Numbered from the stretch's first letter, positions 3,091-64,000 are shown. The stretch: 64,000 nt of DNA from Bacteroidia bacterium (GCA_044224315.1 JBGAKR010000001.1:1298733-1362732); one strand, 5' to 3'. Notes: generated by a model from the letters alone, not told the origin. Translations and numbers: made by a program.

Positions 3091-3099
3091 TTCGGTTTT

Positions 3100-8544: not shown

Positions 8545-8575
8545 TCAGTAAATAAATTAAAAGTCTAAAATGTGC

Positions 8576-17720: not shown

Positions 17721-18071
17721 TTATTTTTTTAAAGGATATTTCAAAGATTTTTCTGCGGGATGGAATGATATACATATAACTGGAGAGCTCTTGGATCCCA
17801 TACTAATCTTTATATATATTTCAACCCCTTTAACTTTTTTCCCAAAAACCCACATTTCACCTAGGTTATTAAGATTGTCTGTATAAGGTCCTTCTGAGTA
17901 ATCTTCAATAGACAAGCTTTGAATAACTTCAATTCTTTGCTTGCTTGTAAGTTCAAGGTCCAGCAAAGCTTGGGTGTTTTTACTCCTGTCATCACGAAAA
18001 ACGATTTCCCATACCTTCATTTTTTGATGAAAATCATTCAAAAATTGTTTTACCAAGTCATGAGAATTCAT
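17721..18071 (-). CDS. MqsR-family mRNA interferase toxin
   Basis: 116 aa. VIQSLSIEDYSEGPYT...GVEIYIKISMGSKSSPVICISFHPAEK aligns with E. coli MqsR IIGLSESDFYKSMTTY...GQVYLKITVIHDVLIVSFKEK. It ends 3 nt before the antitoxin start. Confidence 0.65.
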   Translation of the reverse strand: MNSHDLVKQFLNDFHQKMKVWEIVFRDDRSKNTQALLDLELTSKQRIEVIQSLSIEDYSEGPYTDNLNNLGEMWVFGKKVKGVEIYIKISMGSKSSPVICISFHPAEKSLKYPLKK

Positions 18072-19240: not shown

Positions 19241-20010
19241 AGTGTTTAAATATTAAATATTGATGTTGTTTTTGATCGCCATCCCTGTTGTGTTTTGTGC
19301 ACCAAACCCAAGCCCGTTAGGCAATCTGAAATAAAAACGCCGGGAAGGGCAAAAAAGATACAGCCCTCGTCGCTTTTGGCGTCTTTGGCACAAAATGGCG
19401 TATTTTATCAAATATTTTCTATACGAGAATAAATTAATTACTACAATTAAAAATTCAAATTGTAGTACAAAAAACTACATCAAAAAATATTTCATATAAA
19501 TTGTAATTATTCGGGGTATTTATACGTTTAGGGTGAAATATTAAATCAGAAATAGGTATGAAAAAAAGGGTGGTAAAAATTAAAATGCAGTGCAATAGGG
19601 CTGAGGAAAAAAAACGGAATTGCCTGGCATTAATGGAACGAAGCTGTAGCACAGGATACCCATTGCATAAAGGCTGCAGCATCATTTCTTGGAATAGTAG
19701 AATAGGATAGAAGCATGCTAAAAGGTAAACAAAAAATTGCCAAAAATATGCGAAAAAGTAAATTAATAATTGAATTAAATAAAAAACAAAATCACAAAAC
19801 CTTTTGGCAGAAAGGGATACATCATAATACAGGTGGGGTAAGTTGCATAGGAGTTGCTTGTGAGTGTTGGGTAAGTTGCATTCAAGTTGCGGGTAAACTG
19901 CGCACATACTGCTGTCAGACTGCATTCAGACTGCTTCCACATTGCTGTCACACTGCACTTTGAATTTTTTAAAAAACAAAAAAATAAACCTAAAAAACCG
20001 GAGGAATTAA

Positions 20011-20196
20011 ATGAAAAAACCATTGATTTTACACTGTGCCGATTTAATGAAAATCGAAAAAATAAGTCACCGAACGGCGCAGCGGCGCATGGCACAAATT
20101 AAAAAACACTACAAAATAAACCGCCGATTTATCACCACCGCCGAATACTGCAGCTTTGCCCAGATCAGCCGCGAACATGTGTGGGAAGCGCTGTGA
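20011..20196 (+). CDS. small putative HTH DNA-binding protein (excisionase/AlpA-like), 61 aa
   Basis: MKKPLILHCADLMKIEKISHRTAQRRMAQIKKHY resembles short Xis/AlpA-type HTH proteins near mobile DNA in Bacteroidota. An AGGAGG-like sequence lies 7 nt upstream. The CCGATATCGG repeat array follows directly. Confidence 0.35.
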   Translation: MKKPLILHCADLMKIEKISHRTAQRRMAQIKKHYKINRRFITTAEYCSFAQISREHVWEAL

Positions 20197-20425
20197 ACAG
20201 CCGTACCGACAGCCGATATCGGATGGCGGATATCTGATATCTGTAACAGCCGTACGAACAGCCGATGGAACAGCCGAAAGGCAGCCGAAGAACAGCCGTA
20301 CCAACAGCCGATATCGGATCTCAGATAACGGATATCGGATCTCAGATAACGGATATCGGATATCGGATATCAGAAACAGCCGTAACGACAGCCGACAGCC
20401 GATCTCTGATTACGGATCACAGAAA
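20195..20425. repeat. minisatellite-like array R1 of the AACAGCCG / CCGATATCGG (GATATCGGAT) family
   Basis: Contiguous units such as cagccgtaccgacagccgatatcggatggcggatatctgatatctgtaacagccg ... ggatatcggatatcggatatcag. No spacers. The palindromic core CCGATATCGG recurs. Confidence 0.85.
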
Positions 20426-20689
20426 CTGTTAAAATGAGGTAATTAATTACCACTTAAATAAGCATTGCAACCCCGCAGAGCTCCTCAGATAAAAAGTGTT
20501 TATCAAACCTGAAAGGAATTTGTGAGGTGGGGCGGCTTTGCCGCGAAGTAAGACTGCGCTGCTTTTTGCCAAATAGGGGTGTTCTAATCGTTGCATCCCC
20601 TTGGCAAAAACCTTGCACTTGCCCGAACTGAAATTATTTCAGGCGGGGGCGTGGTAAATTTCTTTCCAGGTTTGATAGCTTTTTATCTG

Positions 20690-20865
20690 AAGCCCGCCCA
20701 CCAAAGGTGTGGCGGGCTAGCCTTTTTGGCTACTTTTTGCGTCTCGGCTCAGCCGAGAGAAAAAGTAGCTAGTGTTAAGTTGAGCTAACCCTCGAGGAAA
20801 TTGTTAAAAGCAGTAAAAATGCCTGGTTATTTCGGCTTAGCCGAGACCAAAATTTGAGATCGAAA
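20690..20865. repeat. composite hairpin-rich element, copy A
   Basis: Contains cccgcccaccaaaggtgtggcggg, gctactttttgcgtctcggctcagccgagagaaaaagtagctag (about 17-bp arms), gagctaaccctc and ttcggcttagccgagacca. Copy B at 25455-25835 shares every module. Confidence 0.75.
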
Positions 20866-20883
20866 GAATGATGCACGTATCAA

Positions 20884-20916
20884 TAAAAAAAGGCTGCAAC
20901 TGCAGCCTTTTTTTGA
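20884..20916. terminator. intrinsic terminator downstream of the 1313-aa T9SS cargo gene
   Basis: aaaaaaaggctgcaactgcagccttttttt: stem ggctgca/tgcagcc flanked by A- and T-runs, 20 nt beyond the stop at 20935. Confidence 0.6.
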
Positions 20917-20934
20917 AAAATATATTTTAACTTT

Positions 20935-23900
20935 TTACTGTTTTACAAATTTTATTACCCGATTTCCTGTTCCCCAATCCACACTTACATTATACACCCC
21001 GGCCTTCAGCGATTCAGTGTTTAACAAAATAGAATTAGAGGTAGAATTTGCATTATAATTTGTTTGCATAATCACACGTCCGGTAAGATCAGTGATTTGA
21101 ATATTTAATTGCAAATTCTCCGGTGTACTTACCTGCAGTACTGTATTGCTATTACTGGGGTTTGGCGCCAGTGAAACCGAAATACTGGTGGGTAATACAC
21201 GGTTGTTTTGATTGCAAATATTGGTAGAAATTTTAGCACCATTTTGTGATACCATTTCTACGCGGTAATATTTATTTCCTTCAGCCAAACTATTGTCGGT
21301 ATACTGATAGGTTTTTTGCATCAAACCACGGTCGGCAGCGCTTACCAGAACCTTGCCTATAGAGCGGAACTTACCATTCTCGTTTGCACTTAAAACATTA
21401 AAATACGCTGCATTTGCAAGTTCATAGGCAGTCCATTTTAATTCAATTCCAGCGGTATTTTTATTGCAAACCAGATCCGAAATCGACATGGGCAATGAAA
21501 TACTGTTAATGGTATAAGTGGCTACACGGCCGTCCAATCCTGCCGAATCTGTATACAAATACTGGAAGCTCATAGAGTTCTGGTAATTCATGTGTACAAA
21601 CAGGAATAAATTGGTAGGAACAAGCAAGGGAATTTCATATCGGCCCAGGGTGGGGTTCCAGAATATATAGCTGGGGTCGGTAACTGTAGGATTGGCAATC
21701 AAGAGGTAATTGGTATTGCCAACCTGGTACACCAGTACAGCATCATTGGCATCGGGGAGTGTTACAAACACAGTGGTATCGATTACTGCGCCATTTACGC
21801 CTTTCAAACGACCATCTTCAACATCAAAGCCAGACAAACGACCGGGCATTACAGTAGAATCGTTTGAGTTTACGGTTGTATCGGTACTACCCGCTACACT
21901 GTTTAAACGGATAAAGTGCGTGTAGTATGGCAAACCGGTAAGGCCTGGAACAGAATCCGCAATTATATAGTAGGTTTTATCATGGGCCCAGGGGGTGTAT
22001 TCGATTCCAAAATCTACATTGCTGATATTGGAAGTTACGGATGTTACATTCATCAATCCGTTTGGCGCGCCGGTTTCGATGCCATTGCCAGCCGCATTGT
22101 TGGTACCAAATTGCTCACCGGTTCCAACCCATGGGAATGGCAAACCATAGAATCCGGGGTCGGAAATATTGGTGCCGCGCTGGTCAGAAGAAATGCGCAC
22201 TTTGTAGTTTGAGTTGGCATCTATCAATCCCAGGCTATAGGTTCCTGTAAGCGGATTAACCCTGGAGCTGTCTACAATTACATTGCTGCTGTTTAGCAGA
22301 TATGCATAAAGCTGTACAGAAGAGAAAATGCCTTTGCCAATACCGTTTATCAGATTGTCGGTAAGGCCGGTTTTATCGTGCCAAACTTTACCGGTAAGGC
22401 TAAGTTCGGTAAATGGAAGGGTTACCACTGCATCGCTGAGGTCATCAAATCCTGCACTGTCGCGCCATACATAATTAAATGTAACGGTACCGGCACCTGC
22501 AAAGGTAGGATCGGCAGTAAGCAGCGCGGGTATAAAACCTGTCACTACCTGGCCAACAGAAATGGGGTTTCCGTTGTAATAAATATTTCCGTTGGTACCC
22601 AAAGATTTAAATACCAGGGTATTGCCTCCCTTTTTGGTTCCATCCTCTAGGTCGGAACCCGTTAGCGGATCAACTGTAACCTGCACAGTTCCGCCAGGGT
22701 TAAGCTGGGATGCCATGGTTAGGTTGTTGCTTTCCGGACGTTCGTCAATTCCAAAATTGGCATTGCTCACCGCACTGGTGGCAACCGATACGGGTAAGAA
22801 GCCGTTTACCGAACCATCATTGCCTGCACCTGCACCCAGGTTTTCGCCGGTATTTACCCAATTGGTGGGCAGGGTGGTTGCGGGTGTAGGCTGACTTACA
22901 ACCCCTTGTACTGTGCTCAGCTGAATGATATAATTGGTATTTACCGAAACAGTGGGGAATGTATAGGTTCCGCCAGAAACTGCTGTGGTTTGTACCACAG
23001 TGGTGCCAGCCGCATACAGCAGGTTGGCGTAAAGTGTGGTACCAGGTAAAGAGCCCAGGCCAAATGCATTTACAGTGTAATCCAGCAGCCCGTTTCCATC
23101 GTCATACACATTACCGGTGAGGGGAATGGCACATCCTGGGAATACCTGAATGTTGAAGGTAGCACTGCGGGTACAACCATTGCTTTTGCGGGTCATGGTT
23201 GCAGTATATACGCCCGCTGTAACCACTGTATCGGTGTATTTATCGGTTTTGTTATACCCTCCGGGCCCGGTCACATTGAGGGTGTACAGGCTGGTATTAT
23301 TGGGGGTTATGGTAAATATTTTGGCGCGGAAAGCCGAAAGGCCGTTACATACCGAATCAGTAACACTTACATTTACAGGAGGGGTGGCAGTATCGGCCAA
23401 AACGGTAATTGTTTTAGTACCTTCTGCCGCACATCCGTTGAATTTAGAAATAGAAACTGTGTATGTACCAGGTTTGTTGATATAGGCCGAGTCATTAAGC
23501 AACGTATCGCCAGATATAGGTGTACCACCCGAGGTTACAAAGCCCGAACCCGAGTTGGCGGTCCATTTCCAGTAAGGTGCATAATAGTTGTCTGCAGCGG
23601 CCGATTGACCCACAATAAGGCCCAAGGGACTGTTACAGGTAATGGTATCGGTAGAAGCATTGATAGGGAGCAAAGAGGCCACACGGAAATCCAGAGGACC
23701 TACCAGATCTTTTAAGTCGGAAGTAAAGCTGGTAGAAGCGCGTGATTTGGCCATGAATGAATTGTAAATAGGGGCGCATGGATCGCTGAACAAAATGGTA
23801 GGATCCACACCCATGGAGGTAAAGTTTACAGCAAAATCCAAATAAGCGTTTTGCGCATAGTTGTCTACGCGATTATTAGAAGCATCTTTAGCACCCCATG

Positions 23901-24837
23901 GTGGACCCGGAGTTGGACCAGTATTGTCGGTCATATTATACAAAATGCTGGCACCCGTAATATCAACGGTTGCATAGCCAAAGGTATCGTTGCGCTTGGT
24001 AAAAGTATTACCGCCATTGGGTCCGTCAAATTCACCACCGCTGGAAGGAATAAGAAATTTCAGTTTGTTACCGGGGTGTTTTGCATTGTAGTTTCTCCAT
24101 TCGCTATAACGGGTCCAGATGCGCAATTGGGCATTGGTAAGACCTGAAGAACCGAAGTCGGCTGCAAAAATTACGTCACCGATTTTGGTAGCATCACCGG
24201 TAGTGGCATCAAATACCCAGGCAGTATGCCCGGTATCAGGTCCGTAAGTAAATCTACCGGTAGTTTTGTTCAGTTTAATGGTATCCTGAATGTATTCAAA
24301 GTCGAAAAACCGGTCACCACTGCTTGCAACTGTAACTACGCTGCCTAAAAGCCATAAAGAGTCGTTTACAGTAGGTCCGCCGCGGCGGAAAGCAGTGTAT
24401 ACATCCACCAAATCGTTTTTAGCAGGTACCGAACTGGGCTCGGCTTTCCAGTAGCGCGGGTTCATACCATTCTTGGATGCACCAATCGAGGGCAAAGAGG
24501 TAAAAATGGTAGAATCGGGGTTAGAACCACCGTTCACGGCAATCTGGTCGCGGCCATATACAGCACCGATCAGCAGGTTGCCATTCAGCGGAGTATAAAG
24601 CTTGTATGCCGATTTGCGGATCAGGGCTGTGTTGTAAGTAGCAGTGTTGTTGGTACCAAAGTAATTGCGCCAGTACGCAGCACCGGTAGTATCAATGATG
24701 CCTCGTCCGGTACCTCCGTTTTTGGCAATGAACCAATCATCGGTTCCACTTACAAAAGGAATACCTCCAACAGTTTGTGCAACAGATGCTAAGCTTAGGC
24801 TCAAGAGGAGAGCCATGAGGGAATATTTGAGTTTCAT
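20935..24837 (-). CDS. large secreted T9SS cargo protein (signal peptide, Ig-like/beta-rich body, type-A CTD)
   Basis: Probable start MKLKYSLMALLLSLSLASVAQT at 24837. C-terminal LAPNPSNSNTVLQV...LKAGVYNVSVDWGTGNRVIKFVKQ is a Por/T9SS sorting domain. Confidence 0.8.
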   Translation of the reverse strand: MKLKYSLMALLLSLSLASVAQTVGGIPFVSGTDDWFIAKNGGTGRGIIDTTGAAYWRNYFGTNNTATYNTALIRKSAYKLYTPLNGNLLIGAVYGRDQIAVNGGSNPDSTIFTSLPSIGASKNGMNPRYWKAEPSSVPAKNDLVDVYTAFRRGGPTVNDSLWLLGSVVTVASSGDRFFDFEYIQDTIKLNKTTGRFTYGPDTGHTAWVFDATTGDATKIGDVIFAADFGSSGLTNAQLRIWTRYSEWRNYNAKHPGNKLKFLIPSSGGEFDGPNGGNTFTKRNDTFGYATVDITGASILYNMTDNTGPTPGPPWGAKDASNNRVDNYAQNAYLDFAVNFTSMGVDPTILFSDPCAPIYNSFMAKSRASTSFTSDLKDLVGPLDFRVASLLPINASTDTITCNSPLGLIVGQSAAADNYYAPYWKWTANSGSGFVTSGGTPISGDTLLNDSAYINKPGTYTVSISKFNGCAAEGTKTITVLADTATPPVNVSVTDSVCNGLSAFRAKIFTITPNNTSLYTLNVTGPGGYNKTDKYTDTVVTAGVYTATMTRKSNGCTRSATFNIQVFPGCAIPLTGNVYDDGNGLLDYTVNAFGLGSLPGTTLYANLLYAAGTTVVQTTAVSGGTYTFPTVSVNTNYIIQLSTVQGVVSQPTPATTLPTNWVNTGENLGAGAGNDGSVNGFLPVSVATSAVSNANFGIDERPESNNLTMASQLNPGGTVQVTVDPLTGSDLEDGTKKGGNTLVFKSLGTNGNIYYNGNPISVGQVVTGFIPALLTADPTFAGAGTVTFNYVWRDSAGFDDLSDAVVTLPFTELSLTGKVWHDKTGLTDNLINGIGKGIFSSVQLYAYLLNSSNVIVDSSRVNPLTGTYSLGLIDANSNYKVRISSDQRGTNISDPGFYGLPFPWVGTGEQFGTNNAAGNGIETGAPNGLMNVTSVTSNISNVDFGIEYTPWAHDKTYYIIADSVPGLTGLPYYTHFIRLNSVAGSTDTTVNSNDSTVMPGRLSGFDVEDGRLKGVNGAVIDTTVFVTLPDANDAVLVYQVGNTNYLLIANPTVTDPSYIFWNPTLGRYEIPLLVPTNLFLFVHMNYQNSMSFQYLYTDSAGLDGRVATYTINSISLPMSISDLVCNKNTAGIELKWTAYELANAAYFNVLSANENGKFRSIGKVLVSAADRGLMQKTYQYTDNSLAEGNKYYRVEMVSQNGAKISTNICNQNNRVLPTSISVSLAPNPSNSNTVLQVSTPENLQLNIQITDLTGRVIMQTNYNANSTSNSILLNTESLKAGVYNVSVDWGTGNRVIKFVKQ

Positions 24838-25074
24838 TTTGGTTTGAACGAACAACTGTAGAACCCCTAAAATCATAAATTTGCAGAAAAGACATAATAC
24901 TATACAAAAGCACTTTATTACTTTATGAAATGTTAAGTGGGATTTAGGTAATTGTTAATTGCAACATCTAAATTCCCTGAAAAAAATGAATTTTTGAAAG
25001 AATATTCGCACTTTGGTTAACTATTTTGGGTGTTTTATTTATTAAAATTGGATATACTAAAGATTTACAGATTT

Positions 25075-25375
25075 TGAATGGCGGATAGCAGAAACGGTCT
25101 TACGAACAGCCGATATCGGATAACGGATATCGGATATCAGATATCGGAAACAGCCTTTGTAACAGCCGATGGAACAGCCGAAAGGCAGCCGTACCAACAG
25201 CGGATATCGGATGGCGGATATCGGATATCAGATATCTGTAACAGCCTTCTCAACAGCCGATGTAACAGCCTTCTCAAAAGCCGAAAGGCAGCCGATATCG
25301 GATCGCGGATGTCGGATATCAGAAACAGCCTTACCTACAGCCGGGATAACTGATCTCAGATTTAAGATACCGGAT
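25075..25375. repeat. minisatellite-like array R2 of the AACAGCCG / CCGATATCGG family
   Basis: Same unit composition as R1. ORFs 25078-25353 and 25169-25378 are translations of the repeat. Confidence 0.85.
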
Positions 25376-25454
25376 TAAAGAAACAACTTCCATCCCCGCA
25401 TTCCAGCCCGCAGGGCGTCAACCAAGTCTTGCTCCAAAGGAGCCGATTGCCACC

Positions 25455-25835
25455 CCCGCCCACCAAAGGTGTGGCGGGGAAAAAACACCGGGACCCAATC
25501 AACTTTATTTCGTGGGCCGGCCTGTGAGAGGCGAAAAAGCCCGTCCGAATGGCTTGGCCGGGCGGACAGACCAGCCCTGCCTGATTTTACTCCGCCCATC
25601 TTTTAGATGTGGCGGAGGGGGCTGTTCCTGGTCCTTTTTTTCGCAGCTGAAATAAAGTTGAATTTGGGTGGTGATTTTTTCTGCAGTGGCTAGCTTTTTT
25701 GCGCTACTTTTTGTGTCTCGGCTCAGCCGAGAACAAAAAGTAGCTAGCAAGGAGGTGAGCTAACCCTCAAAAAGTGCGCTAATAAATGTTGCTATATTGC
25801 TTTTTCGGTCTCAGCTTAGCGGAGACCAACCAGTG
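25455..25835. repeat. composite hairpin-rich element, copy B (with ~200-bp insertion relative to copy A)
   Basis: Contains ccgcccaccaaaggtgtggcgggg, a second degenerate hairpin ctccgcccatcttttagatgtggcggag, gctactttttgtgtctcggctcagccgagaacaaaaagtagctag, gagctaaccctc and ggtctcagcttagcggagacca. Same orientation as copy A. Confidence 0.75.
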
Positions 25836-25931
25836 AAATTATGAGAAATACACAACCATTTTCGGTAAAAAAGTCAAACCTTTCCAATGCATTTACAGAA
25901 GCTAGAATGCAAACAGCGGCAACTCTATTTA

Positions 25932-26813
25932 TTAGTCAAAAGGTTGTAATTTAAACATTACCCCCAACGTAAGCTTTGACCTAGGAACCACAGGCGCAAT
26001 GAGGTAGTTTGTAAAATGATATTCCGCCAAAAAAATCAATCCCGTTATACCAAAACAGAATTGCCCCACAAATTCATTCCAACGGTTTGTGTAATTTTTA
26101 ACAATAAAATAATTGCCTTCTTTTTGCTTGAATCTATATACCATCGGCAAATTGTAATAGGCCCCGATATCGACAAAAAAGAGAGGATATTTATTAATTT
26201 TCTTTTTCGATTGCCAACCAAAAAATATACCCTCGCCCAAACTTATATTGGTTATATGCTGCCTTAAGGTGGGCTTATTTGTAAGTAAGCTGGTATTGGT
26301 TTTATAGCCCAGATGCCCATATTCCAAACGCAAATTATTACCGATATATAAATGGGTATTTAAATGTTTAACCTGATTCATGCCGCAAACAAACATCCAA
26401 TCATTTTTGGTACGAATTTGTGCAGGCAAATATTTGTCCGACCCCCAAGCCATTCCTTCATACGCCCATGCGTCTACACTATTATCCTTCTCGTAAGGGT
26501 AATACCAGGGCAGTTGCCAACTGATCATGGTAGTCGAATCCTGATAAATAAATACATGCGGAAATATGCAAAAAGTATCGCTCTCTTTCATAAAAAATAC
26601 CGTGTATTCACCCACCGGCAAGGTATCATTGGTATAGGTTTCAGTATTATTTGGTTTAAATATTTGAGTATCTTTTCCAACTATACTTATGTTTATTTTA
26701 ATCGGTCGGCTATTGGAAGTTTGGGCATTATAATTATAACAGGATAGCACTCCTTTTTGCCCAAAAACCTGCAGACCGGGTATAATAAATAAAATCACAA
26801 TCCATTTTTTCAT
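25932..26813 (-). CDS. secreted hypothetical protein (293 aa, signal peptide)
   Basis: MKKWIVILFIIPGLQVFGQ looks like a signal peptide. The ORF is clean but sandwiched between repeat arrays, and no domain is recognised. Confidence 0.5.
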   Translation of the reverse strand: MKKWIVILFIIPGLQVFGQKGVLSCYNYNAQTSNSRPIKINISIVGKDTQIFKPNNTETYTNDTLPVGEYTVFFMKESDTFCIFPHVFIYQDSTTMISWQLPWYYPYEKDNSVDAWAYEGMAWGSDKYLPAQIRTKNDWMFVCGMNQVKHLNTHLYIGNNLRLEYGHLGYKTNTSLLTNKPTLRQHITNISLGEGIFFGWQSKKKINKYPLFFVDIGAYYNLPMVYRFKQKEGNYFIVKNYTNRWNEFVGQFCFGITGLIFLAEYHFTNYLIAPVVPRSKLTLGVMFKLQPFD

Positions 26814-26852
26814 ATTAATAAATTTCTAATGGTACTTCAAATGTAATTAATT

Positions 26853-27262
26853 TTACCGACAGCCGATGTCGGATAACGGATATTGGATATCAGATGTCTG
26901 TAACAGCCGATGGAACAGCCGAAAGGCAGCCGTACCAACAGCCGATATCGGATCGCGGATAACGGATATCAGATATCTGAAACAGCCGATGTCGGATATC
27001 AGATATCGGATATCGGAAACAGCCTTAATAACAGCCGATGGAACAGCCGATAGAACAGCCGTACCGACAGCCGATAACGGATCGCGGATATCGGATATCA
27101 GATATCTGAAACAGCCGATGGAACAGCCGAAAGAAACCGAAGAACAGCCGTACCGACAGCCGATATCTGATATCTGATCTCGGATTGCGGATATTAGCAA
27201 CAGCCGTACCAACAGCCGATATCGGATCGCGGATGTCGGATATCGGATATCAGAAACAGCCG
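26853..27262. repeat. minisatellite-like array R3 (largest, about 4 higher-order units) of the AACAGCCG / CCGATATCGG family
   Basis: Higher-order unit of about 100 bp: tgtaacagccgatggaacagccgaaaggcagccgtaccaacagccgatatcggatcgcggata.cggatatcagatatc, repeated with variants. Confidence 0.85.
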
Positions 27263-27318
27263 TCTCATCCTAATCGCTTATAAAACGAAAACTTTGTAAA
27301 TGAAAACGTCAGCAACGT

Positions 27319-27352
27319 GCATGGTTTAAACAACCTTGCACGTTTTTATTTC
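27319..27352 (+). terminator. plus-strand intrinsic terminator immediately after repeat array R3
   Basis: aacgtgca-tggtttaaacaacct-tgcacgtt followed by tttatttc. The T-run is on the plus strand only and no plus-strand CDS lies upstream. Confidence 0.4.
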
Positions 27353-27354
27353 TA

Positions 27355-27420
27355 CGATATCCGAAATCTGATATCTGATATCGGATTGCGGATATCTGAT
27401 GATGGATTTTAGATCTCGGC
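27355..27420. repeat. short array R4 of the GATATCGGAT family
   Basis: atatccgaaatctgatatctgatatcggattgcggatatctgatgatggattttagatctcgg. Confidence 0.6.
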
Positions 27421-27513
27421 TGTTCATTCACAATCCATAATTCACAATTCACAATTCGGCTGTCCGTTGCACTTTGCTGCGCCCATTGGAAATGTGGCGG
27501 ATTGCACCGGCTG

Positions 27514-27552
27514 TTCATTTTACATTTTACATTTTACATTTTACATTTTCCA
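27514..27552. repeat. (ACATTTT)n microsatellite abutting the stop of the membrane protein gene
   Basis: cattttacattttacattttacattttccatt. It is preceded by (TTCACAA)n at 27425-27455 and by a fourth copy of the CGCCCA...TGTGGCGG hairpin at 27478-27500. Confidence 0.8.
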
Positions 27553-28959
27553 TTACCTAAAAACCTCCCCCTTCTTCGCTTTCTCCGCATCCGTGGGGCT
27601 CAGCATTTTATCAAAATCTTTCGGAGGATTGGATTTAAAAAATATAGCCCAATACGCTTTTTTTGTCATACTGTCCCAATGCAGCAGCCCGCCCTGGTAT
27701 TGTCCGGTTTGGTTTAAATTGAGTTTGCAGAAAAAGAAAATAATGCAAATAAAAACGAGTCTTAATCCCGTTTTTAATTGGCTGATATATTGCAGCGAAA
27801 TGGCCAGGGGTAAGGCCAGAAGAGGGTAAAAATCAATCATGCTGCGGGCGCCAAAACTGCCGCCAAACCACCAGCACCACCAGCAAGAGTGTAGCCATAC
27901 GGTTATTAAAATAACCAAAAAAACGGGCCAACTGTATCCATTTCGGCGCAATATTTTATTAAAAATACCCGCCAAAGCAAACAGCATAATGGGTGTGTAT
28001 AACAGCCATCCCTTGCGGTAACTAAACAAATATTCGGGCAATAACCAATGGTTAAAAAAGAATTTTTCGCCCTCGTATCCGTAATACAAAAAATGCCCCG
28101 TGGCCCATTTCCAGTATATCAATTGGATAATGAACGGAATGGCCCCAACGCCTATTGCCAGCAGCACATGCCGGTAGTGATTGCGCCACTGTTGCAGCCT
28201 GTTTTTAAAATCAGAAAATTGGGTTATACCCAAACAAATTGGAATTAAAATTAATATAAAATCTGTAGGCCTTATAAGGGTAATAAAACCCAAACTAAAA
28301 CCTATAAAACCTGCGTATTTCCATCGAAAAGTTTGGTACCATTTAAGGCTGGCATAGAGCAATAAACTGCATAGAAAAAAATTAACGCTATGCGTCATAC
28401 AGGCCTCAAAGGTGGCATAATTGAGCAAATTGGTACCCAATGCCAATAGCAGTAGGGTGGCGCACCGCAGGTATTCGTTTACATGAAAAATACCCATGGA
28501 TTTGTAAATTAAAAAAAAAGCTACTATCAATAAAAAAAGAGTCCACACCCATACGCCGAATAAATAGGGGGTGGTAAATCCATCCTGCACCGCACCCGTA
28601 GCTTTGGCCAGTAAGTGCCCTGCAATAAAACCCGGGCTTACCATAATGGCATAGCCCAGTGTCATGCGAGTGGTGTAGCGCTTGGTAGGATGGGGTTTTA
28701 CCCAAAAATTGGAGATATAACCCGGTGGAAATGGCTTGTCTAAAAACCCAAAACCCCCGTCGTGATAAATGATAAATGCCGGCAAATACCCGTAGTACTC
28801 TATGGCATCCATTTTTACCAGGTAAGTAGGGTTGGTTGGATCCAAAGCCTTGCGTTCCAAAGTGGTTTGGGTATAGCTAAATGTAATCACAGCCAGGGTG
28901 ATAAGCAGGCAGTAATACTTAAAATTTTGCTGAACAATATCTAAAATCCGGGTTTGCAA
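27553..28959 (-). CDS. polytopic membrane protein, GT-C/ArnT/PMT-like glycosyltransferase fold (putative)
   Basis: 468 aa with more than 10 predicted TM helices and aromatic-rich loops (YGYLPAF, FWVKPHP). The function call rests only on architecture. Confidence 0.4.
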   Translation of the reverse strand: MQTRILDIVQQNFKYYCLLITLAVITFSYTQTTLERKALDPTNPTYLVKMDAIEYYGYLPAFIIYHDGGFGFLDKPFPPGYISNFWVKPHPTKRYTTRMTLGYAIMVSPGFIAGHLLAKATGAVQDGFTTPYLFGVWVWTLFLLIVAFFLIYKSMGIFHVNEYLRCATLLLLALGTNLLNYATFEACMTHSVNFFLCSLLLYASLKWYQTFRWKYAGFIGFSLGFITLIRPTDFILILIPICLGITQFSDFKNRLQQWRNHYRHVLLAIGVGAIPFIIQLIYWKWATGHFLYYGYEGEKFFFNHWLLPEYLFSYRKGWLLYTPIMLFALAGIFNKILRRNGYSWPVFLVILITVWLHSCWWCWWFGGSFGARSMIDFYPLLALPLAISLQYISQLKTGLRLVFICIIFFFCKLNLNQTGQYQGGLLHWDSMTKKAYWAIFFKSNPPKDFDKMLSPTDAEKAKKGEVFR

Positions 28960-28965
28960 GAAGCA

Positions 28966-29175
28966 GCAATATAATGTAAAATGTAGAATGCAAAATGCAA
29001 AATGGCAACGACGCGGTCAAAGGATGTTTTGCATGAAGGAAATGGAAAATGTAAAATGGAAGAATCGCGGTCTCTTGCATTTAATCCCAGCAAGAAAACC
29101 ATCACACAGGAATAGCCAAAAAGCCATGGCTGTTAAATTCTACATTCTACATTTTGCATTCCACATTAAAAAAGG
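28966..29175. repeat. inverted and direct copies of the ACATTTT microsatellite upstream of the membrane protein gene
   Basis: gtaaaatgtagaatgcaaaatgcaaaatgg ... ggaaaatgtaaaatgg (inverted orientation) and aaattctacattctacattttgcattccacatt (direct). Confidence 0.6.
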
Positions 29176-29191
29176 CCCTAAGGCCTTTTTT
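29168..29191. terminator. bidirectional intrinsic terminator after the 543-aa T9SS cargo gene
   Basis: aaaaaaggcc-ctaa-ggcctttttttt directly abutting the stop at 29192. Confidence 0.6.
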
Positions 29192-30811
29192 TTAGTTCTT
29201 CACCACCATAAGCTTTTGGGTTTGTATCTGCGCTCCGTGTCGGATTTGCACTATATACACCCCTTCGGCCCAGGTTTGGGTTTGTATTCTTATCGTTTGG
29301 CCAGTAGGATCGGTGTTTTTATACACCAAAGCACCGGTTTGGCTGTACACATTTACTTCTAGCGCCTCCTCGGTAAGGTTATTGCCAAATGTGGTAATGT
29401 CTACAAAGCTGCTGGTAGGGTTTGGTGCCATCATAATACCGGCATTGGCGCCTTGTTTAAACAGGCTGGCCACACCCGAAGTGTAGGTTTTGCCATTGGT
29501 ACCGGTTGCAGTAATACGGTATAGAATAGTGCCGCTTACGGCGCTTAAATCATCGTCGGTACTGTATTTAATAATTCCTTTTTCTTTTTTAGCGGTAACT
29601 GTAGTAAGGTAATTAAATTTTTTATCGCCGGGCAATGCGCGTTCTACCAGGTAAGTGGCCACCTGCTCGTCGTTATCTACGGTCCAGCTTACAGTTGCAA
29701 TCTGGTCTGATTTCCAGGTGGCGTTGATTCCCAAAAATTCAATGGGCAATGGTACTACCATCCAGGGGTCATTCCACACGGTTTTGGCAAATGCGCCAAA
29801 GTATTTAAGGTTGTTACGCACACTTACTATGGTGCTGCTTACTGGAGTTCCGGTGGTAAGGTCGCCCGGGCTAACACCTGCCTGGGTGCTTGCTTTGGCA
29901 AAGTTATCCCAGTTGGTATAGCTGATGGTATCACCCTCGGTATTGGGGCTGAAACCCACATAGCGGCTAATGAAATGGTAGGGACGGTAATTGGTAAAGT
30001 GGGCACCCTCATGGCCTGTATTGTGCTGCAGGTAAAGGTTGGCATTGCTACCCCCAACTACATCTTCTTTTACAAACCAGGTTGTTTGGGTACTGCGGTC
30101 GTTTTGCTGCGAACCGCTTACAGCCAGCTCTTTTACTTCAGGAGCCACGCGTATGCTAAAATTATCCGGAGTTCCGGTATTCTCCATAGCCGCCGGTTCG
30201 TAATTCAGTGCATTGGGGCCAATGGGCCATACCACTTTTACGGCACCCACATTTTTTCGCACCAAAAACCCCTGGTTTATTTGCAAGGGCGAGTTGGTAA
30301 CTACGTAGCGGTTTTCGTCAAACCCGTCTATTACCCCCGGGCCAGCATTGCCTACCACAAAATCGTTGCCATTGAGATACATTTTACCATTGATAAAACG
30401 CAGGGTATCAAGGGCCCCGGCCGATGAATTGACGAGTTGCACATTTTGGCTATTGTCAATTACGACCGATCCCAATTGGGTTCCGCCAGCATCCAGATAC
30501 TGGGGAAAACTACCGCTGCCGGGCATTAAACGAGGACCTTTGAATATCAATTGTCCGGCCCCTGAAACAGTGCTGCCAGTAACAATTTGCATAGAATCGC
30601 CAAAAAAATAAACCCGCGCATTGGGGTTAAAAACCAGGTTGCCTCCATTTACGGTAAGCTTGCCGTAAATCATTACGGTATCCTGAAAAAAGCCAACCCC
30701 AAGACCGGGTGAAAAGTATACATTGTCCTGTGCTTGCGCGGTAAAAACTCCTGTCATGAAAATGGCAAGCAACCAGGTGGCTTTTAAGCGGGTTTTAAAA
30801 TATTTTATCAT
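29192..30811 (-). CDS. T9SS cargo protein with FN3-like domain and type-A CTD
   Basis: Probable start MIKYFKTRLKATWLLAIFMTGVFTAQAQ. FN3-like WKSDQIATVSWTV...YRITATGTNGKTYTS. CTD MMAPNPTSSFVDITT...GVYIVQIRHGAQIQTQKLMVVKN. Confidence 0.75.
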   Translation of the reverse strand: MIKYFKTRLKATWLLAIFMTGVFTAQAQDNVYFSPGLGVGFFQDTVMIYGKLTVNGGNLVFNPNARVYFFGDSMQIVTGSTVSGAGQLIFKGPRLMPGSGSFPQYLDAGGTQLGSVVIDNSQNVQLVNSSAGALDTLRFINGKMYLNGNDFVVGNAGPGVIDGFDENRYVVTNSPLQINQGFLVRKNVGAVKVVWPIGPNALNYEPAAMENTGTPDNFSIRVAPEVKELAVSGSQQNDRSTQTTWFVKEDVVGGSNANLYLQHNTGHEGAHFTNYRPYHFISRYVGFSPNTEGDTISYTNWDNFAKASTQAGVSPGDLTTGTPVSSTIVSVRNNLKYFGAFAKTVWNDPWMVVPLPIEFLGINATWKSDQIATVSWTVDNDEQVATYLVERALPGDKKFNYLTTVTAKKEKGIIKYSTDDDLSAVSGTILYRITATGTNGKTYTSGVASLFKQGANAGIMMAPNPTSSFVDITTFGNNLTEEALEVNVYSQTGALVYKNTDPTGQTIRIQTQTWAEGVYIVQIRHGAQIQTQKLMVVKN

Positions 30812-30834
30812 ATTCGTATGCAATAATTTAAAGA

Positions 30835-32328
30835 CTATGGTATAACCCAGTACTGTAAGCTAGAACCCCTTATTACCTGTGTGGCATTTCCGTTGGAGGT
30901 ATTCTGGGCCCATTCAAAGCTAAAAGTGCCGCTGGTATTTACTTCTACTGTGCCCTCGATAAAAACATAGCCTACATTGGCACCGGTTACCCCATCATTG
31001 GTGGCAAGGGTTACAGACTGGGCCAGGGCATTGTTTACCGTGTGTGTGAATGTTTGTACATCATTGTCGCGCATTTGGGCCATGTATTGGATATTAGTAA
31101 CAGAGGTGCTGTGGTTGATTCTGAATTTAAAATCGGGCGTATTGTTCGATGATCCAAAGAATACCAATATTTTAAATCCATAAGTAGTGCTGGCTGTGGT
31201 GCTAAATGCCAGATCGGGGTCGGCGGCAAAGGTAGTAGTACTGCTGCGCGATGTGTTGGAGGTTTTGTAAATATGATTTACCACTTCGGGGGTTTTCCAG
31301 GTAGGTGCTGCGCTGCTTCCGTTAGAGGTAAGCACCTGTCCGCTGCTGCCGGTACCCGCATTTTGGAAACTGCCGGTATCGGTGGTGCCGCCGAGTATAA
31401 CACCATAGGCAGTGGTAGTGGTAAGGCCGGTTCCGCCATTGGCCACGGCTACAGTACCGGTAACATTGGCTGCAGTACCGGTGGTATTCTGGTTTAGTGT
31501 AGGAATATCAGCCGCTACTATGGCCCTGAAAGCAGGGGTGCCGGCCGCTCCGTTTGGTGCAGCATAAAAAGTATTGGCTGTTTGAGAGCCAAAGGGGGCC
31601 AGATAATCCGTACCCGCCACTGCGGCAGAGATGGCAGTACCATTGCCTTTCAGCAAACCGGTAATGCTTGTGCCAATGGTTATGGCTGGTGTGCTGGTAG
31701 CGGTGGCTACACTGCCTGTAAATCCGTTTGCCGAAACCACCGAGGCGCTTGTTACGGTGCCTACAGAAAAACTGCGGTTTGCACTTAAGTCTAAAGTAGT
31801 ACCGTTTATAGTAAGGGTACGCGAGGTTGAAACCGCATCGGTTATGCCATAGCCGGCTACTGTAGTAGGTTTGCCAGTGGTAATTTTGCTCCAGTCAAGG
31901 CTGGGAATATCGCTAGCACTAAGGGTAGTGCCGCTGGTTACCCGGCCAAAAGCATCGGTGGTAACTTTGGTATAAGTGCCGGCAGTACCGGTGGTACCCT
32001 GCAGCATTCTTTGCCAGGCGGTGCCATCCCAGTAATAAAATCCAGGGGTTACATTGTTGGGCGAGCTGCCTGCTGTGGCAGTATTGTATACTATGGTTCC
32101 TGTTAGCGGACCTGTGCCGGCATTCAGCGGGTTTTTGCTGTTTGTGGCTGTAAGGGCTATACGGGGAAAAGCTACACCTTTATTGGTACTTTCTATTTCC
32201 AATGCAGAGTTTGCATTTCGGGTACCGGGATTGTCACCAACCTTTAAGCCTTGGCCATAAATCCCTGTTGCTCCAACGAGCAACAGGGTTAAGGCTATAT
32301 TTTTCAATTTTAAATGTATCATTTTCAA
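30835..32328 (-). CDS. secreted T/G/S-rich repeat protein, paralog A (shared N-terminal MKVGDNPGT domain)
   Basis: 497 aa with a signal peptide. N-terminal GLKVGDNPGTRNANSALEIESTNKGVAFPRIALTATN and internal GTAGTYTKVTTDAFGRVTSG-type motifs. No T9SS CTD recognised. Confidence 0.6.
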   Translation of the reverse strand: MKMIHLKLKNIALTLLLVGATGIYGQGLKVGDNPGTRNANSALEIESTNKGVAFPRIALTATNSKNPLNAGTGPLTGTIVYNTATAGSSPNNVTPGFYYWDGTAWQRMLQGTTGTAGTYTKVTTDAFGRVTSGTTLSASDIPSLDWSKITTGKPTTVAGYGITDAVSTSRTLTINGTTLDLSANRSFSVGTVTSASVVSANGFTGSVATATSTPAITIGTSITGLLKGNGTAISAAVAGTDYLAPFGSQTANTFYAAPNGAAGTPAFRAIVAADIPTLNQNTTGTAANVTGTVAVANGGTGLTTTTAYGVILGGTTDTGSFQNAGTGSSGQVLTSNGSSAAPTWKTPEVVNHIYKTSNTSRSSTTTFAADPDLAFSTTASTTYGFKILVFFGSSNNTPDFKFRINHSTSVTNIQYMAQMRDNDVQTFTHTVNNALAQSVTLATNDGVTGANVGYVFIEGTVEVNTSGTFSFEWAQNTSNGNATQVIRGSSLQYWVIP

Positions 32329-32359
32329 TGAATCCTGATTTAAAGGTTTCGGTGAAGGA

Positions 32360-34303: not shown

Positions 34304-34512
34304 TTTATTGTTGTTATTAAGTTTTTGTTGTTTGTTTTTGCCCGTTTAAAGGCGTTTTGTGATTGTTTTTTTAATGTTTGTTATGCTAGTTGGTGTTATT
34401 TGTTTTTTGTATGGATAGTTGGTTTTTTTATTTCTTTTTTTTGGGCATGGCTTCGCCAGGATGAGTTCGTTTACTAACTCTTATCTGCTTGTTTGTTAAG
34501 GGGTTGTTTAGG

Positions 34513-61329: not shown

Positions 61330-61520
61330 GACTTGTTGGAATGGTTAATTATGTAAACTGTAAACTCCCTGTATCCTCCACTGCCCCCCGCCCCCACTCC
61401 CTGTAATCGCCTCCACTACCCCCCGCCCCCCACTCCCTGTAATCGCCTCCGCTATTCCCTATTCCCCACTTCCTGTAATCGCCTCCGCTATTCCCCATTC
61501 CCTATTCCCCATTCCCTATT
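61330..61520. repeat. C-rich tandem repeat (about 3.5 copies of a ~38-40-bp unit) in the divergent intergenic region before carB
   Basis: cactccctgtaatcgcctcc(a/g)cta(ccccccgccccc/ttccctattcccc) reiterated. Confidence 0.8.
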
Positions 61521-61580: not shown

Positions 61581-64000
61581 ATGCCAAAAGACCCCTCCAT
61601 TCGTTCTGTACTTATCATTGGCTCCGGCCCAATCATCATCGGACAAGCTTGCGAGTTTGATTACTCCGGCTCTCAGGCTGCCCGCAGTCTTCGCGAAGAA
61701 GGTATTGAAGTATCGCTGATCAACAGCAATCCGGCTACCATTATGACCGACAAAATGAACGCCGACCACGTTTATTTATGGCCATTAACCGCCGAAAGCG
61801 TTGAAAAAATATTGCAGGAAAGGCAAATTGATGCGGTGCTGCCTACTATGGGTGGCCAAACCGCATTAAACCTGGCCAAAGAATGCGATGAGCTGGGTAT
61901 TTGGGAAAAATACAACTGCCGCATTATTGGTGTAAACATTGCCGCCATCGACAAAATGGAGGACCGCGATAAATTCCGCGATCTGATGATTGAGTTGGGG
62001 GTAGGGGTAGCAGATGGTCAAATTGCTAATAGCTTTTTGGAAGGAAAAGAAGTTGCCCAACGCATTGGTTTTCCATTGGTTATACGCCCCAGTTATACAC
62101 TTGGTGGAACTGGAGGTAGCATTGTATTTAAGAAAGAAGATTTTGATACCGCCCTGCAGCGCGGACTTGAAGCCAGCCCTATACATGAAGTAATTGTAGA
62201 AAAAGCCGTAATGGGCTGGAAAGAATATGAACTTGAATTGCTGCGCGATGGCAAGGATGATATAGCCGTAATCTGTACCATCGAAAATTTTGACCCCATG
62301 GGCATTCACACCGGGGATTCTATCACCGTGGCGCCGGCCATGACCCTGAGTGATACTTGTTTCCAGGCCATGCGCGATATGGCATTTAAAATGATGCGCA
62401 GTATGGGCGTTTTTGCCGGGGGTTGCAATGTGCAGTTTTCGGTAAACCCCGAGGATGAGCAAATCATCGCCATCGAAATTAACCCCCGTGTGAGTCGCAG
62501 TTCGGCCCTGGCTTCGAAAGCTACGGGTTATCCCATTGCTAAAATTGCCGCCAAACTTGCAGTAGGTTATTATCTGGATGAACTGAAAAATCCGGTTACC
62601 AAAACTACTTCGGCCTTTTTTGAGCCCGCCATTGATTACGTAATTGTAAAAATACCGCGCTGGAACTTCGATAAATTCCACGGTTCAGACCGCCGCCTGG
62701 GTTTCCAGATGAAATCGGTGGGTGAGGTGATGGCCATTGGTCGCAGTTTTCAGGAAGCTCTGCAGAAAGCCTGTCAGAGCCTGGAGATAGGCCGCCATGG
62801 ATTGGGTGCCGACCGCCCTGCAGAACGCAACCTGGAAGTACTGGCCGATGGCCTGGAGCATGCCAGCTGGAACCGCATTTTTCAACTGAAAGATGCCCTG
62901 AGCCTGGGTGTTCCCATTAGCTCGGTACAAAAAATGACCCGCATAGATCGCTGGTTTTTGGAACAAATTGCCGATCTGGTAAAAACCGAAACGGATATAC
63001 GCCGGTTTAATATTGACAACTTGCCGGTGGATTTGCTTCGCGTAGCAAAGGAAAAAGGGTATAGCGATGAGCAAATAGCCTGGCTCATGGGCAATTGCAC
63101 CGCCGAGCAGGTGTACGAGAAACGAAAATCCCTGGGCATTCGCCGTGTATACAAAATGGTAGATACCTGCAGCGCCGAGTTTCCAAGTCCTACCAACTAT
63201 TTCTACAGCACTTTCGACGGAGAAAACGAGAGTGAATTTACCGAAAACAAAAAGAAAGTAATTGTACTGGGCAGTGGTCCGAACCGCATAGGCCAGGGGA
63301 TTGAGTTTGACTACAGCTGTGTACACGGAATTTTGGCTGCCCGCGAGGCGGGTTATGAAGCCATTATGGTAAACTGCAACCCCGAAACGGTAAGTACAGA
63401 CTTTGATATGGCCGACAAGCTGTATTTCGAGCCGGTGTATTGGGAACATTTGTGGGAGCTGATTGAATACGAAAAGCCCGAGGGTGTAATAGTGCAGTTG
63501 GGCGGTCAAACCGCATTGAAACTGGCCGAAAAACTCCACGAAAAAGGCGTAAAAATCATCGGTACCGATTTTGGCAGCATGGATCTTTCCGAAGACCGTG
63601 GCCGCTTTAGCGATCTGCTGGCCGAGTTGGATATTCCATACCCTAAATACGGTGTAGCCCTGGATGCCGAAGAAGCCATCAAAATTGCAAATGAAGTAGG
63701 TTACCCTGTATTGGTTCGCCCCAGCTATGTGTTGGGCGGACAAGGCATGGTAATCGTAATTAATGACGAGGACCTGGAAAAGGCGGTGGTAAAGCTTATG
63801 GGAGACCTGCCCGGCAACCGCGTGCTGATAGACCATTTCCTGGACCGTGCAGAAGAAACCGAAAGCGACAGTATTTGCGACGGAGATGAAGTACACATCA
63901 TAGGCATGATGGAACATATAGAGCCTGCCGGTATCCACAGCGGAGACAGCAGCGCCGTATTGCCTCCGTTCAGCCTCAGCGAAAACGTGAAAAACCAGAT
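61581..64000 (+). CDS. carB: carbamoyl-phosphate synthase large subunit (partial, continues beyond window)
   Basis: MPKDPSIRSVLIIGSGPIIIGQACEFDYSGSQA...LVIRPSYTLGGTGG...NPRVSRSSALASKATGYPIAKIAAKLAVGY, and a second ATP-grasp half KVIVLGSGPNRIGQGIEFDYSCVHG...VRPSYVLGGQGM. No stop inside the window. The minus-strand ORFs at 61488-63938 are antisense artefacts. Confidence 0.95.
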   Translation, partial: MPKDPSIRSVLIIGSGPIIIGQACEFDYSGSQAARSLREEGIEVSLINSNPATIMTDKMNADHVYLWPLTAESVEKILQERQIDAVLPTMGGQTALNLAKECDELGIWEKYNCRIIGVNIAAIDKMEDRDKFRDLMIELGVGVADGQIANSFLEGKEVAQRIGFPLVIRPSYTLGGTGGSIVFKKEDFDTALQRGLEASPIHEVIVEKAVMGWKEYELELLRDGKDDIAVICTIENFDPMGIHTGDSITVAPAMTLSDTCFQAMRDMAFKMMRSMGVFAGGCNVQFSVNPEDEQIIAIEINPRVSRSSALASKATGYPIAKIAAKLAVGYYLDELKNPVTKTTSAFFEPAIDYVIVKIPRWNFDKFHGSDRRLGFQMKSVGEVMAIGRSFQEALQKACQSLEIGRHGLGADRPAERNLEVLADGLEHASWNRIFQLKDALSLGVPISSVQKMTRIDRWFLEQIADLVKTETDIRRFNIDNLPVDLLRVAKEKGYSDEQIAWLMGNCTAEQVYEKRKSLGIRRVYKMVDTCSAEFPSPTNYFYSTFDGENESEFTENKKKVIVLGSGPNRIGQGIEFDYSCVHGILAAREAGYEAIMVNCNPETVSTDFDMADKLYFEPVYWEHLWELIEYEKPEGVIVQLGGQTALKLAEKLHEKGVKIIGTDFGSMDLSEDRGRFSDLLAELDIPYPKYGVALDAEEAIKIANEVGYPVLVRPSYVLGGQGMVIVINDEDLEKAVVKLMGDLPGNRVLIDHFLDRAEETESDSICDGDEVHIIGMMEHIEPAGIHSGDSSAVLPPFSLSENVKNQ

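Follow-up and report, generated by a model that had tools for sequence, protein, structure and literature searches.

A 64,000-nucleotide stretch of the genome of an uncultured Bacteroidia (Bacteroidota) lineage (GCA_044224315.1, JBGAKR010000001.1:1298733-1362732), referred to here as the window, contains four intergenic arrays of short repeats placed head to tail, which are visible in the sequence itself and are recovered by Tandem Repeats Finder (TRF; coordinates in Table 1). These arrays are probably a non-coding, lineage-specific compound satellite belonging to the class of heptamer repeats. Slippage, unequal exchange and gene conversion are the most likely source of this satellite, which occupies a flexible region of the genome, and a dedicated function is most likely lacking. 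The closest known class is that of the intergenic heptamer-repeat assemblages (PMC4679880), which a preliminary description of this DNA had missed; the arrays show every testable defining feature of this class, and what sets them apart is the sequence of the units, the presence of a 12-mer and a regular 44/91-nt organisation. Coordinates are positions in the window, and the source genome was read over the window and about 7 kb beyond its edges.

Detection and validation of the arrays

The edges of the arrays were found base-for-base identical in two independent short-read contigs of the same strain (L001, SRR28480385; L125, SRR28480381). Because independent contigs carry exactly the same edges, the arrays are not an assembly artefact; this support concerns the edges, and the same-strain contigs stop inside the arrays. 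The repeats are real and far above chance. The octamer AACAGCCG occurs 30 times in the window where 1.6 occurrences are expected, 24 of them on the plus strand inside arrays 1 to 3, and GATATC occurs 52 times (9.5 expected), 37 of these sites being within arrays.

All arrays are located between long open reading frames (ORFs). Array 1 overlaps the stop codon of a 61-aa ORF by that codon's final base, and at its 3' edge it passes into degenerate heptamers (e.g. GATCTCT, GATTACG and GATCACA at 20402-20422). Array 2 is situated about 200-240 nt upstream of a gene for a cargo protein of the type IX secretion system (T9SS; 20935..24876, minus strand), and the left end of array 3 abuts the promoter of a gene encoding a 293-aa secreted protein. 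Array 4 is oriented opposite to arrays 1-3 and belongs to a larger compound array on the minus strand, which reaches position 27554.

Repeat composition

The arrays were tokenised at the conserved octamer in order to derive the grammar of their units, of which there are two types. The first is a 12-mer, RACAGCC(G/T)nnnn (RACAGCCKnnnn), with four-nucleotide fillers such as TACC, ATGG, AAAG or TCTC. The second is the octamer RACAGCCG followed by heptamers of the form ATnnCnG (GGATATC in the other register), whose variants include ATATCGG, ATAACGG, ATCGCGG, ATGGCGG, ATATCAG and ATATCTG, among others. Seven copies of this second type are blocks of exactly 44 nt (octamer, five heptamers and one nucleotide); shorter or longer blocks measure 37 nt (four heptamers, three copies) or 72 nt (nine heptamers, one copy). 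The 44-nt block alternates with three or four 12-mers, and the succession 44-mer, AACAGCCGATGG (..GATGG), AACAGCCGAAAG (..GAAAG), GCAGCCGTACC is common to all three plus-strand arrays. The centres of the arrays are homogeneous and regular, and their edges decay into degenerate heptamers.

This grammar leaves much of the preliminary description standing. Four arrays do occur where it had placed them, with slightly refined limits, and they are intergenic. Units follow one another without interruption, the 4-nt fillers not being spacers, so that its exclusion of a CRISPR array is upheld. The higher-order repeat, given there as about 100 bp, exists with a period of about 79-91 nt (about 89-91 nt according to TRF, with 129 nt in one TRF row). 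The units themselves are of 7 and 12 nt, not of 8-10 nt, and the 10-bp palindrome CCGATATCGG, said to recur many times, is present six times in the window (0 expected), always at the junction between RCAGCCG and the first heptamer; as it is confined to this junction, it is a by-product of the grammar.

On both strands the arrays leave several frames open, and a coding reading was rejected on this ground and because the periods of 7, 44 and 91 nt are not multiples of three, which makes the arrays non-coding. Six-frame translations of the arrays gave no match in a database of 5.8 billion protein clusters, a search that would also catch spurious ORF calls on other copies.

Arrays resemble each other as much as they resemble themselves. 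Arrays 2 and 3 are 90% identical over 124 nt, and one block of 89 nt is 96% identical between them, the best match within an array (array 3) being 87% over 139 nt. Blocks do not cluster by array, and the variants ATAACGG, ATGGCGG and ATCGCGG of the second heptamer are common to several arrays. Independent slippage at each site fails to explain this similarity, which points to ectopic exchange or a recent seeding of the arrays from one another.

Heptamer blocks elsewhere in the window

Blocks were considered heptamer-periodic when their lag-7 identity was at least 0.8 over 28 nt. Fourteen such blocks were found in the window, all of them intergenic. The extent given in the preliminary description holds for the four loci, but the phenomenon reaches further, with compound parts following array 4 up to 27554, heptamer arrays around 28970-29167, 36-mer and heptamer arrays at 61364-61520 (Table 1) and a region downstream of carB. 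In the latter, past the right edge of the window (contig L125), the carB stop is followed by (GTGCAAR)x4, GAACAGCC and another heptamer block. Several heptamers are juxtaposed within single regions: GATATC-type, AATTGTG and TAAAATG within 26853-27554, AATGYAA and AATGYRG within 28970-29167. Arrays occupy about 5 of the 14 intergenic gaps of the window, in addition to the region downstream of carB; several long intergenic regions of the window and the 5.5 kb beyond its left edge contain none.

The motif RACAGCC is found 22 times outside arrays 1-3. Four of these sites, all intergenic, abut heptamer-periodic sequence (lag-7 identity of 0.76-1.0, for a 99th percentile of 0.57 in the background), and the other 18, most of them in coding sequence, show no 7-nt periodicity. 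The octamer of the arrays thus borders blocks of other heptamers both in the vicinity and at a distance of about 37 kb.

The CATTTTA/AATGYAA arrays at 27516-27547 and 28973-29004 flank a GT39-like gene (27553..28959) and form a 32-nt inverted repeat with 91% complementarity that could serve as a substrate for inversion or fold into a hairpin.

Comparison with relatives and sequence collections

The 14 heptamer-periodic blocks of the window are to be compared with none in about 94 kb from relatives (L126-L131), defined as sequences with 93-94% carB identity or as syntenic ones; the carB neighbourhoods of relatives with a 93-94% identical carB contain no heptamer-periodic block. In a relative with a 94% identical carB, represented in three independent samples, the carB leader of about 30 nt (CTAATTTTGCGCAATTTTAGACATCCATG) is kept and the array upstream of it is absent. 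In contig L128, whose GT39-like protein is 57% identical, the genes for OmpH, PTL, PTL (PTL_trimer), T9SS cargo and GT39-like proteins are syntenic with 27553-35214 of the window. There the GT39-like gene is directly followed by other genes, whereas the window has at this place the arrays and a variable region of about 27 kb. As the synteny with L128 ends where the arrays begin, these are located at the edge of, and inside, a flexible region.

When 185,579 species-representative genomes were scanned with a pattern, three unrelated single hits and no related array came up; the pattern was narrow, requiring an 11-nt third spacing, and would still detect the source genome or close copies. A metagenome scan with a broader pattern returned at least 120 loci; among the matches listed, none had GATATC heptamers and most were coding Q/P-rich repeats. 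Viral contigs scanned for the array junction and for both hairpin motifs gave no hit. Because related arrays are absent from relatives and from the scanned collections, the arrays are regarded as recent, lineage-specific gains. Arrays of this kind break short-read assemblies and so are missing from catalogues based on metagenome-assembled genomes, which is probably why no related copy is found in public collections. The contig breaks were rejected as proof of many copies in the genome, since three local arrays and tandem repeats suffice to explain them.

Two other repeats were encountered in these comparisons. A high-GC metagenome contig (L036, Ga0302322_100000050) carries at 4388-4900 a non-coding compound array with AACAGCCG and periods of 11, 12 and 14 nt, adjoining a perfect 21-nt repeat in 6.5 copies; it is another compound short-period satellite, considered unrelated, and the shared octamer was judged a coincidence. 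A relative with a 94% identical carB (L131, 13911-14784) has a different kind of intergenic repeat, in which about six spacer-free copies of a unit of about 113 nt run to the end of the contig.

Relation to known repeat families

TAACTGA repeats and larger heptamer-repeat assemblages have been described in intergenic regions of Beggiatoaceae, Cyanobacteria and five Bacteroidetes (MacGregor 2015, PMC4679880). Close relatives that share the gene neighbourhoods lack them, and contigs stop within the repeats; in Elizabethkingia anophelis, blocks of the type (TGGTTGA)3-4 (TAACTGA)2-4 TAACCGA (CAACTGA)3 are located upstream of RHS genes, with copy numbers that vary between paralogous loci (PMC4679880). 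The same paper proposes a nucleic-acid-binding mechanism for the TAACTGA repeats, noting that CspB binds heptamer repeats, and reports from Mrazek et al. (2007) that heptanucleotides are the commonest long simple-sequence repeat of prokaryotes, slippage being the proposed cause. The present arrays are likewise intergenic, non-coding and sporadic, with tandem 7-nt units in at least three copies and several heptamers per gap; as in Elizabethkingia, RHS toxin genes are in the neighbourhood, and here too short-read contigs end inside the repeats. Unlike the TAACTGA assemblages, they have as main unit the palindrome-containing GGATATC, a 12-nt unit, a fixed 44-nt/~91-nt organisation and the conserved octamer RACAGCCG, and they are longer (230-410 nt) and mostly not immediately upstream of start codons. 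The variant GATAACG is identical at six of seven positions to TAACTGA when the latter is read as GATAACT, a weak lead given that a 5/7 match in some register is expected by chance in about 18% of cases. Heptamer assemblages have been seen for decades in Cyanobacteria, to which Beggiatoaceae and a few Bacteroidetes were added more recently; to our knowledge, no function or generating mechanism has been established for them.

The cyanobacterial short tandemly repeated repetitive (STRR) sequences are non-coding heptanucleotide tandem repeats, with several families per genome, restricted to lineages and presumed to result from slippage. They differ from the present arrays by phylum and sequence, and we know of no description of higher-order periodicity among them. 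In Haemophilus influenzae, the number of heptanucleotide repeats in the promoters of the hmw adhesin genes controls their expression, in arrays that are short and homogeneous. The present repeats are similarly 7-nt tandem units, prone to slippage and placed beside promoters of surface-protein genes, but they are large and compound, while those of hmw are short and occupy defined positions in the promoter or 5' untranslated region (UTR). Eukaryotic alpha satellite, in which monomers are assembled into higher-order units with homogenised centres and degenerate edges, as unequal crossing-over and gene conversion would produce, offers an analogy for these same three features, at a scale of hundreds of bases instead of megabases, in a bacterium and with no centromere role. 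The likeness to STRR, and to the long simple sequence repeats with units of 5-11 nt of Mrazek et al. (2007, as relayed by PMC4679880), lies in non-coding, lineage-restricted heptanucleotide tandem repetition.

BrickBuilt of Porphyromonas gingivalis is built from a single 23-nt unit, its conserved leader and tail subunits carry small inverted repeats at their ends, and it exists in 19 dispersed copies (PMC4596501). It shares with the present arrays a Bacteroidota host, species specificity, an intergenic array without spacers and with a structured tail, and a potential for promoter activity or transcription; in contrast, the present arrays showed neither terminal inverted repeats nor a shared leader, and the known copies are clustered. 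[quoted passage not shown]

Origin and possible functions

In the origin that we propose, heptamer blocks would arise and change length by slipped-strand mispairing, and higher-order units by unequal recombination; the three arrays, 1.5-5 kb apart, may be kept similar by ectopic gene conversion, or may have been seeded from each other. Arrays would accumulate, and be tolerated, in the long gaps of a flexible region that holds a defence island, RHS toxins, a toxin-antitoxin pair and T9SS cargo genes. Their likely side effects would be local recombination or rearrangement, DNA prone to hairpins or cruciforms, and length-dependent effects on neighbouring promoters: array 3 touches the core promoter that serves the 293-aa gene, and array 1 would fall in the 3' UTR of the 61-aa ORF. 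Among the functions suggested in the preliminary description, that of a recombination hotspot fits best, given that between-array identity is as high as within-array identity and that the arrays are at the edge of a synteny block.

Several observations weigh against a satellite without dedicated function. Short-read contigs break inside the arrays, and copy-number instability is something that we infer. The octamer is conserved beside very different heptamers and seven blocks have exactly the same length, which points to possible constraint rather than drift. A plus-strand-only terminator-like hairpin immediately follows the largest array, and arrays stand beside promoters of secreted-protein genes, both of which would fit a transcribed or regulatory role. 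Lastly, the 5.5 kb beyond the left edge are free of arrays, for a coverage of the genome of 64 kb plus about 7 kb.

Four types of function and one type of mobile origin were weighed against a passive satellite. Expression-tuning (contingency) repeats, in which slippage would change array length and hence the geometry upstream of promoters or the UTRs, giving reversible and heritable variants of secreted and T9SS genes, are an unlikely explanation. They would account for the distance of only 8 nt between array 3 and the -7 box TACATTTG of the 293-aa gene, for array 2 lying about 200 nt upstream of the 1313-aa T9SS cargo gene, and for a neighbourhood of surface or secreted proteins and toxins; they have precedents in the assemblages upstream of Elizabethkingia RHS genes, with their variable copy number (PMC4679880), and in the phase variation by heptamer simple-sequence repeats that is established in H. 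influenzae (PMC8262952, PMC12721329). However, the arrays are upstream of the core promoter and not between the -33 and -7 elements, so that a change in unit number would leave promoter spacing unaltered; array 1 and the array 4 complex are at the 3' ends of genes; with 230-410 nt and a higher-order structure, the arrays greatly exceed known contingency repeats in size; and strain polymorphism was not observable, the short-read contigs stopping inside the arrays. A function at the RNA level appears slightly more doubtful: transcription would place the arrays in the 3' UTR of the 61-aa ORF, or give independent RNAs of about 0.5 kb that end at the terminator of 27314-27352 and at the hairpin tails, and they would serve as a multivalent platform or sponge for a protein of the Csp, S1 or CsrA type that binds single-stranded nucleic acid, one per heptamer, by the mechanism proposed for TAACTGA repeats in a paper which also notes that CspB binds heptamer repeats (MacGregor 2015, PMC4679880). 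The three large arrays do have the same orientation, each being followed by strong hairpins or by a plus-strand-only terminator-like site, and the terminator of the preliminary description holds at the level of sequence: the hairpin at 27314-27344 separates arrays 3 and 4, which have opposite orientations, and has a U-run after it on the plus strand only, and because it is real at this level a plus-strand transcript across array 3 is possible. A -7-like box TAAATTTG is found on the plus strand about 190 nt upstream of array 2, but the window contains 65 matches to the -7 element and about one per 2 kb is expected by chance; no convincing (exact) Bacteroidota-type promoter was detected on the plus strand upstream of array 3, and the array 4 complex runs the other way. 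The structured non-coding RNA suggested earlier receives no backing from Rfam 15, in which the arrays had no hit at the gathering threshold and chance-level ones only at E<=1. Whole arrays fold better than shuffled sequences on both strands (z of -5.3 and -6.5), because GATATC units are self-complementary, and single repeat units fold weakly and inconsistently (z from -0.5 to -3.7), with no consistent unit-level fold.

Arrays of binding sites in double-stranded DNA, where a dimeric transcription factor or nucleoid-associated protein would be drawn to GATATC half-palindromes and CAGCCG boxes spaced by 12 nt and coat the intergenic DNA for silencing, bridging or insulation, are improbable. The heptamer palindromes, at a spacing of 7 bp, would overlap sterically for dimeric binders and their central bases vary freely (ATAT, ATAA, ATCG, ATGG, ATGT, ATCT), the motif is absent from relatives with homologous genes, and there is no candidate regulator: the adjacent 61-aa ORF, previously presented as a small helix-turn-helix (HTH) gene, has no HTH profile match. 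This has to be set against motifs that are highly over-represented and phased, three heptamers making 21 bp or two helical turns, and against an octamer that is conserved beside varied heptamers. To the same low degree one may entertain a composite mobile element, similar to BrickBuilt (a Bacteroidota precedent, PMC4596501), in which the minisatellite would be part of a MITE-like unit of array and hairpin tail copied into three neighbouring gaps. Arrays 1 and 2 are each followed by a tail of about 420 nt, these tails sharing an exact 24-nt hairpin and a 3' module of about 110 nt (about 80% identity), and inter-array identity is high; yet the tails are only partly homologous and differently arranged, array 3 has none, terminal inverted repeats and a shared leader were not found (alignments of module ends being no better than shuffles), target-site duplications are not evident, all three copies fall within the same 7 kb while neither the rest of the window nor the additional 7 kb has another, and the viral and genome scans as well as the metagenome matches listed contained no related element. 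A target or decoy array for restriction-modification (R-M) or defence, or repeats of a replication origin (iterons), are very improbable. The defence island at 1222-10423, a ResIII/RE_endonuc gene beyond the left edge and a local minimum of the cumulative GC skew near 16-18 kb had made them conceivable. The R-M-like genes, said to be adjacent, have their methylase and GmrSD members 10-19 kb away, with RHS and toxin-antitoxin loci in between, and GATATC is not avoided outside the arrays, as the R-M target proposed earlier would imply (15 sites, for about 9.5 expected in the whole window). DnaA boxes number 19 in the window for 21 expected, with none in 16-27 kb, and gene orientation does not switch.

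The conserved octamer beside diverse heptamers is the sole feature that could lead somewhere new. It is conceivable, if quite unlikely, that RACAGCC(G) is more than one repeat unit among others and serves for recognition or initiation by an activity peculiar to the lineage (nucleic-acid binding, nicking or priming), which would actively seed and extend heptamer arrays beside it or read them as a multivalent regulatory platform. The arrays would then be a system generated or used across several heptamer families and not passive products of slippage, and the association of octamer and heptamers, if genome-wide, would make the conserved motif a handle for finding the binding or generating factor. 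The locus is in any case a clean and well-resolved example of heptamer arrays from an uncultured Bacteroidota, with an unusually regular grammar.

Table 1. Coordinates (in the window) of the arrays, further heptamer blocks and associated features
Feature	Position	Strand	Description
Array 1	20196..20425	+	RACAGCCKnnnn 12-mers alternating with GGATATC-type heptamer blocks of 37, 72 and 37 nt
Array 2	25075..25378	+	About 3 higher-order units (44-nt block and 12-mers); both edges degenerate
Array 3	26853..27262	+	Largest array; five 44-nt blocks and one 37-nt block, with runs of 12-mers between them
Array 4	27355..27424	-	AACAGCCG (27424..27417), then about 9 GATATC-type heptamers
Compound array part	27425..27464	-	GACAGCCG then (AATTGTG)x4; same grammar, different heptamer
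Compound array part	27508..27554	-	(TAAAATG)x5-6 ending in AACAGCCG
Heptamer array	28970..29005	+	AATGYAA; upstream of the GT39-like gene
Heptamer array	29127..29167	-	(AATGYRG)x4 then AACAGCC; beside a bidirectional terminator
36-mer and ATTCCCY heptamer arrays	61364..61520	+	Upstream of carB; 36-nt repeat x3.3-3.7 merging into heptamers; lacking in relatives with 93-94% carB identity
Terminator-like hairpin	27314..27344	+	12 bp with one mismatch, dG (folding free energy) -15.4 kcal/mol; then UUUUUAUUU to 27352
Hairpin-rich tail 1	20440..20860	+	Follows array 1; z -10.4; nested long inverted repeats; bulged hairpin CCCGCCCACCAAAGGTGTGGCGGG
Hairpin-rich tail 2	25380..25840	+	Follows array 2; z -7.1; two bulged hairpins
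-7 box TACATTTG	26838..26845	-	Bacteroidota-type, for the 293-aa gene (start codon 26813); 8 nt from array 3

Hairpin families

The 3' module shared by tails 1 and 2 reads GCTACTTTTTGyGTCTCGGCTCAGCCGAGA..AAAAAGTAGC, then GAGCTAACCCTC, then TCnCrGCTTAGCsGAGACCAA (a TCGGCTTAGCCGAGA-type hairpin). The hairpin tails had no Rfam match.

A family of bulged hairpins, CGCCCA-N-TG(T)GGCG, is present on the plus strand at 20695-20714, 25457-25476, 25593-25614 and 27480-27499, that is, in four copies where 0.04 are expected; it is absent from all loci of relatives. The upper stem shows compensatory changes (CC/GG, TC/GA, TT/AA) and the bulged T is conserved. These hairpins resemble repetitive extragenic palindromic (REP) or IS200/IS605-type hairpins of the kind recognised by proteins.

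Genomic context

On either side of the arrays, almost every gene is encoded by the minus strand. The region filled by the arrays contains the genes for the 1313-aa T9SS cargo protein, the 293-aa secreted protein and the GT39-like membrane protein; further T9SS cargo genes follow on the right, then carB. Exact look-ups of the 61-aa ORF and of the T9SS cargo protein starting at 24837 returned no record.

The defence island encodes an N6/N4 methylase, two GmrSD-family proteins, a PD-(D/E)XK nuclease and a UvrD helicase, and continues past the left edge (L134, 9298-13746) with a PIF1-like helicase and the ResIII/RE_endonuc protein. It is followed by an RHS-repeat toxin (10495-15644 and 16701-18071 region), apparently split into a 1553-aa body and a 163-aa piece that carries an RHS repeat and a T9SS C-terminal sorting domain. 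Beside this toxin is an MqsR-like toxin with its MqsA/HTH/SocA-Panacea antitoxin. On the other side of the window, carB (carbamoyl-phosphate synthase large subunit; 61581-64000, plus strand) runs off the right edge, and the minus-strand ORFs 61866..62681 and 62685..63938 were discarded as antisense artefacts inside it.

Other repeats were noted in the window. Directly upstream of the 61-aa ORF, at 19830-19960, a run of A(A/C)(G/T)TGC units (AAGTTGC... then ACTGC...) with a period of about 11 nt could be a region of phased binding sites or of bent DNA. Repeats of 231/462 nt (36132-37050) and of 240 nt (39576-40118), with 75-78% identity, fall within T9SS cargo genes; they repeat protein domains and have no relation to the intergenic arrays.

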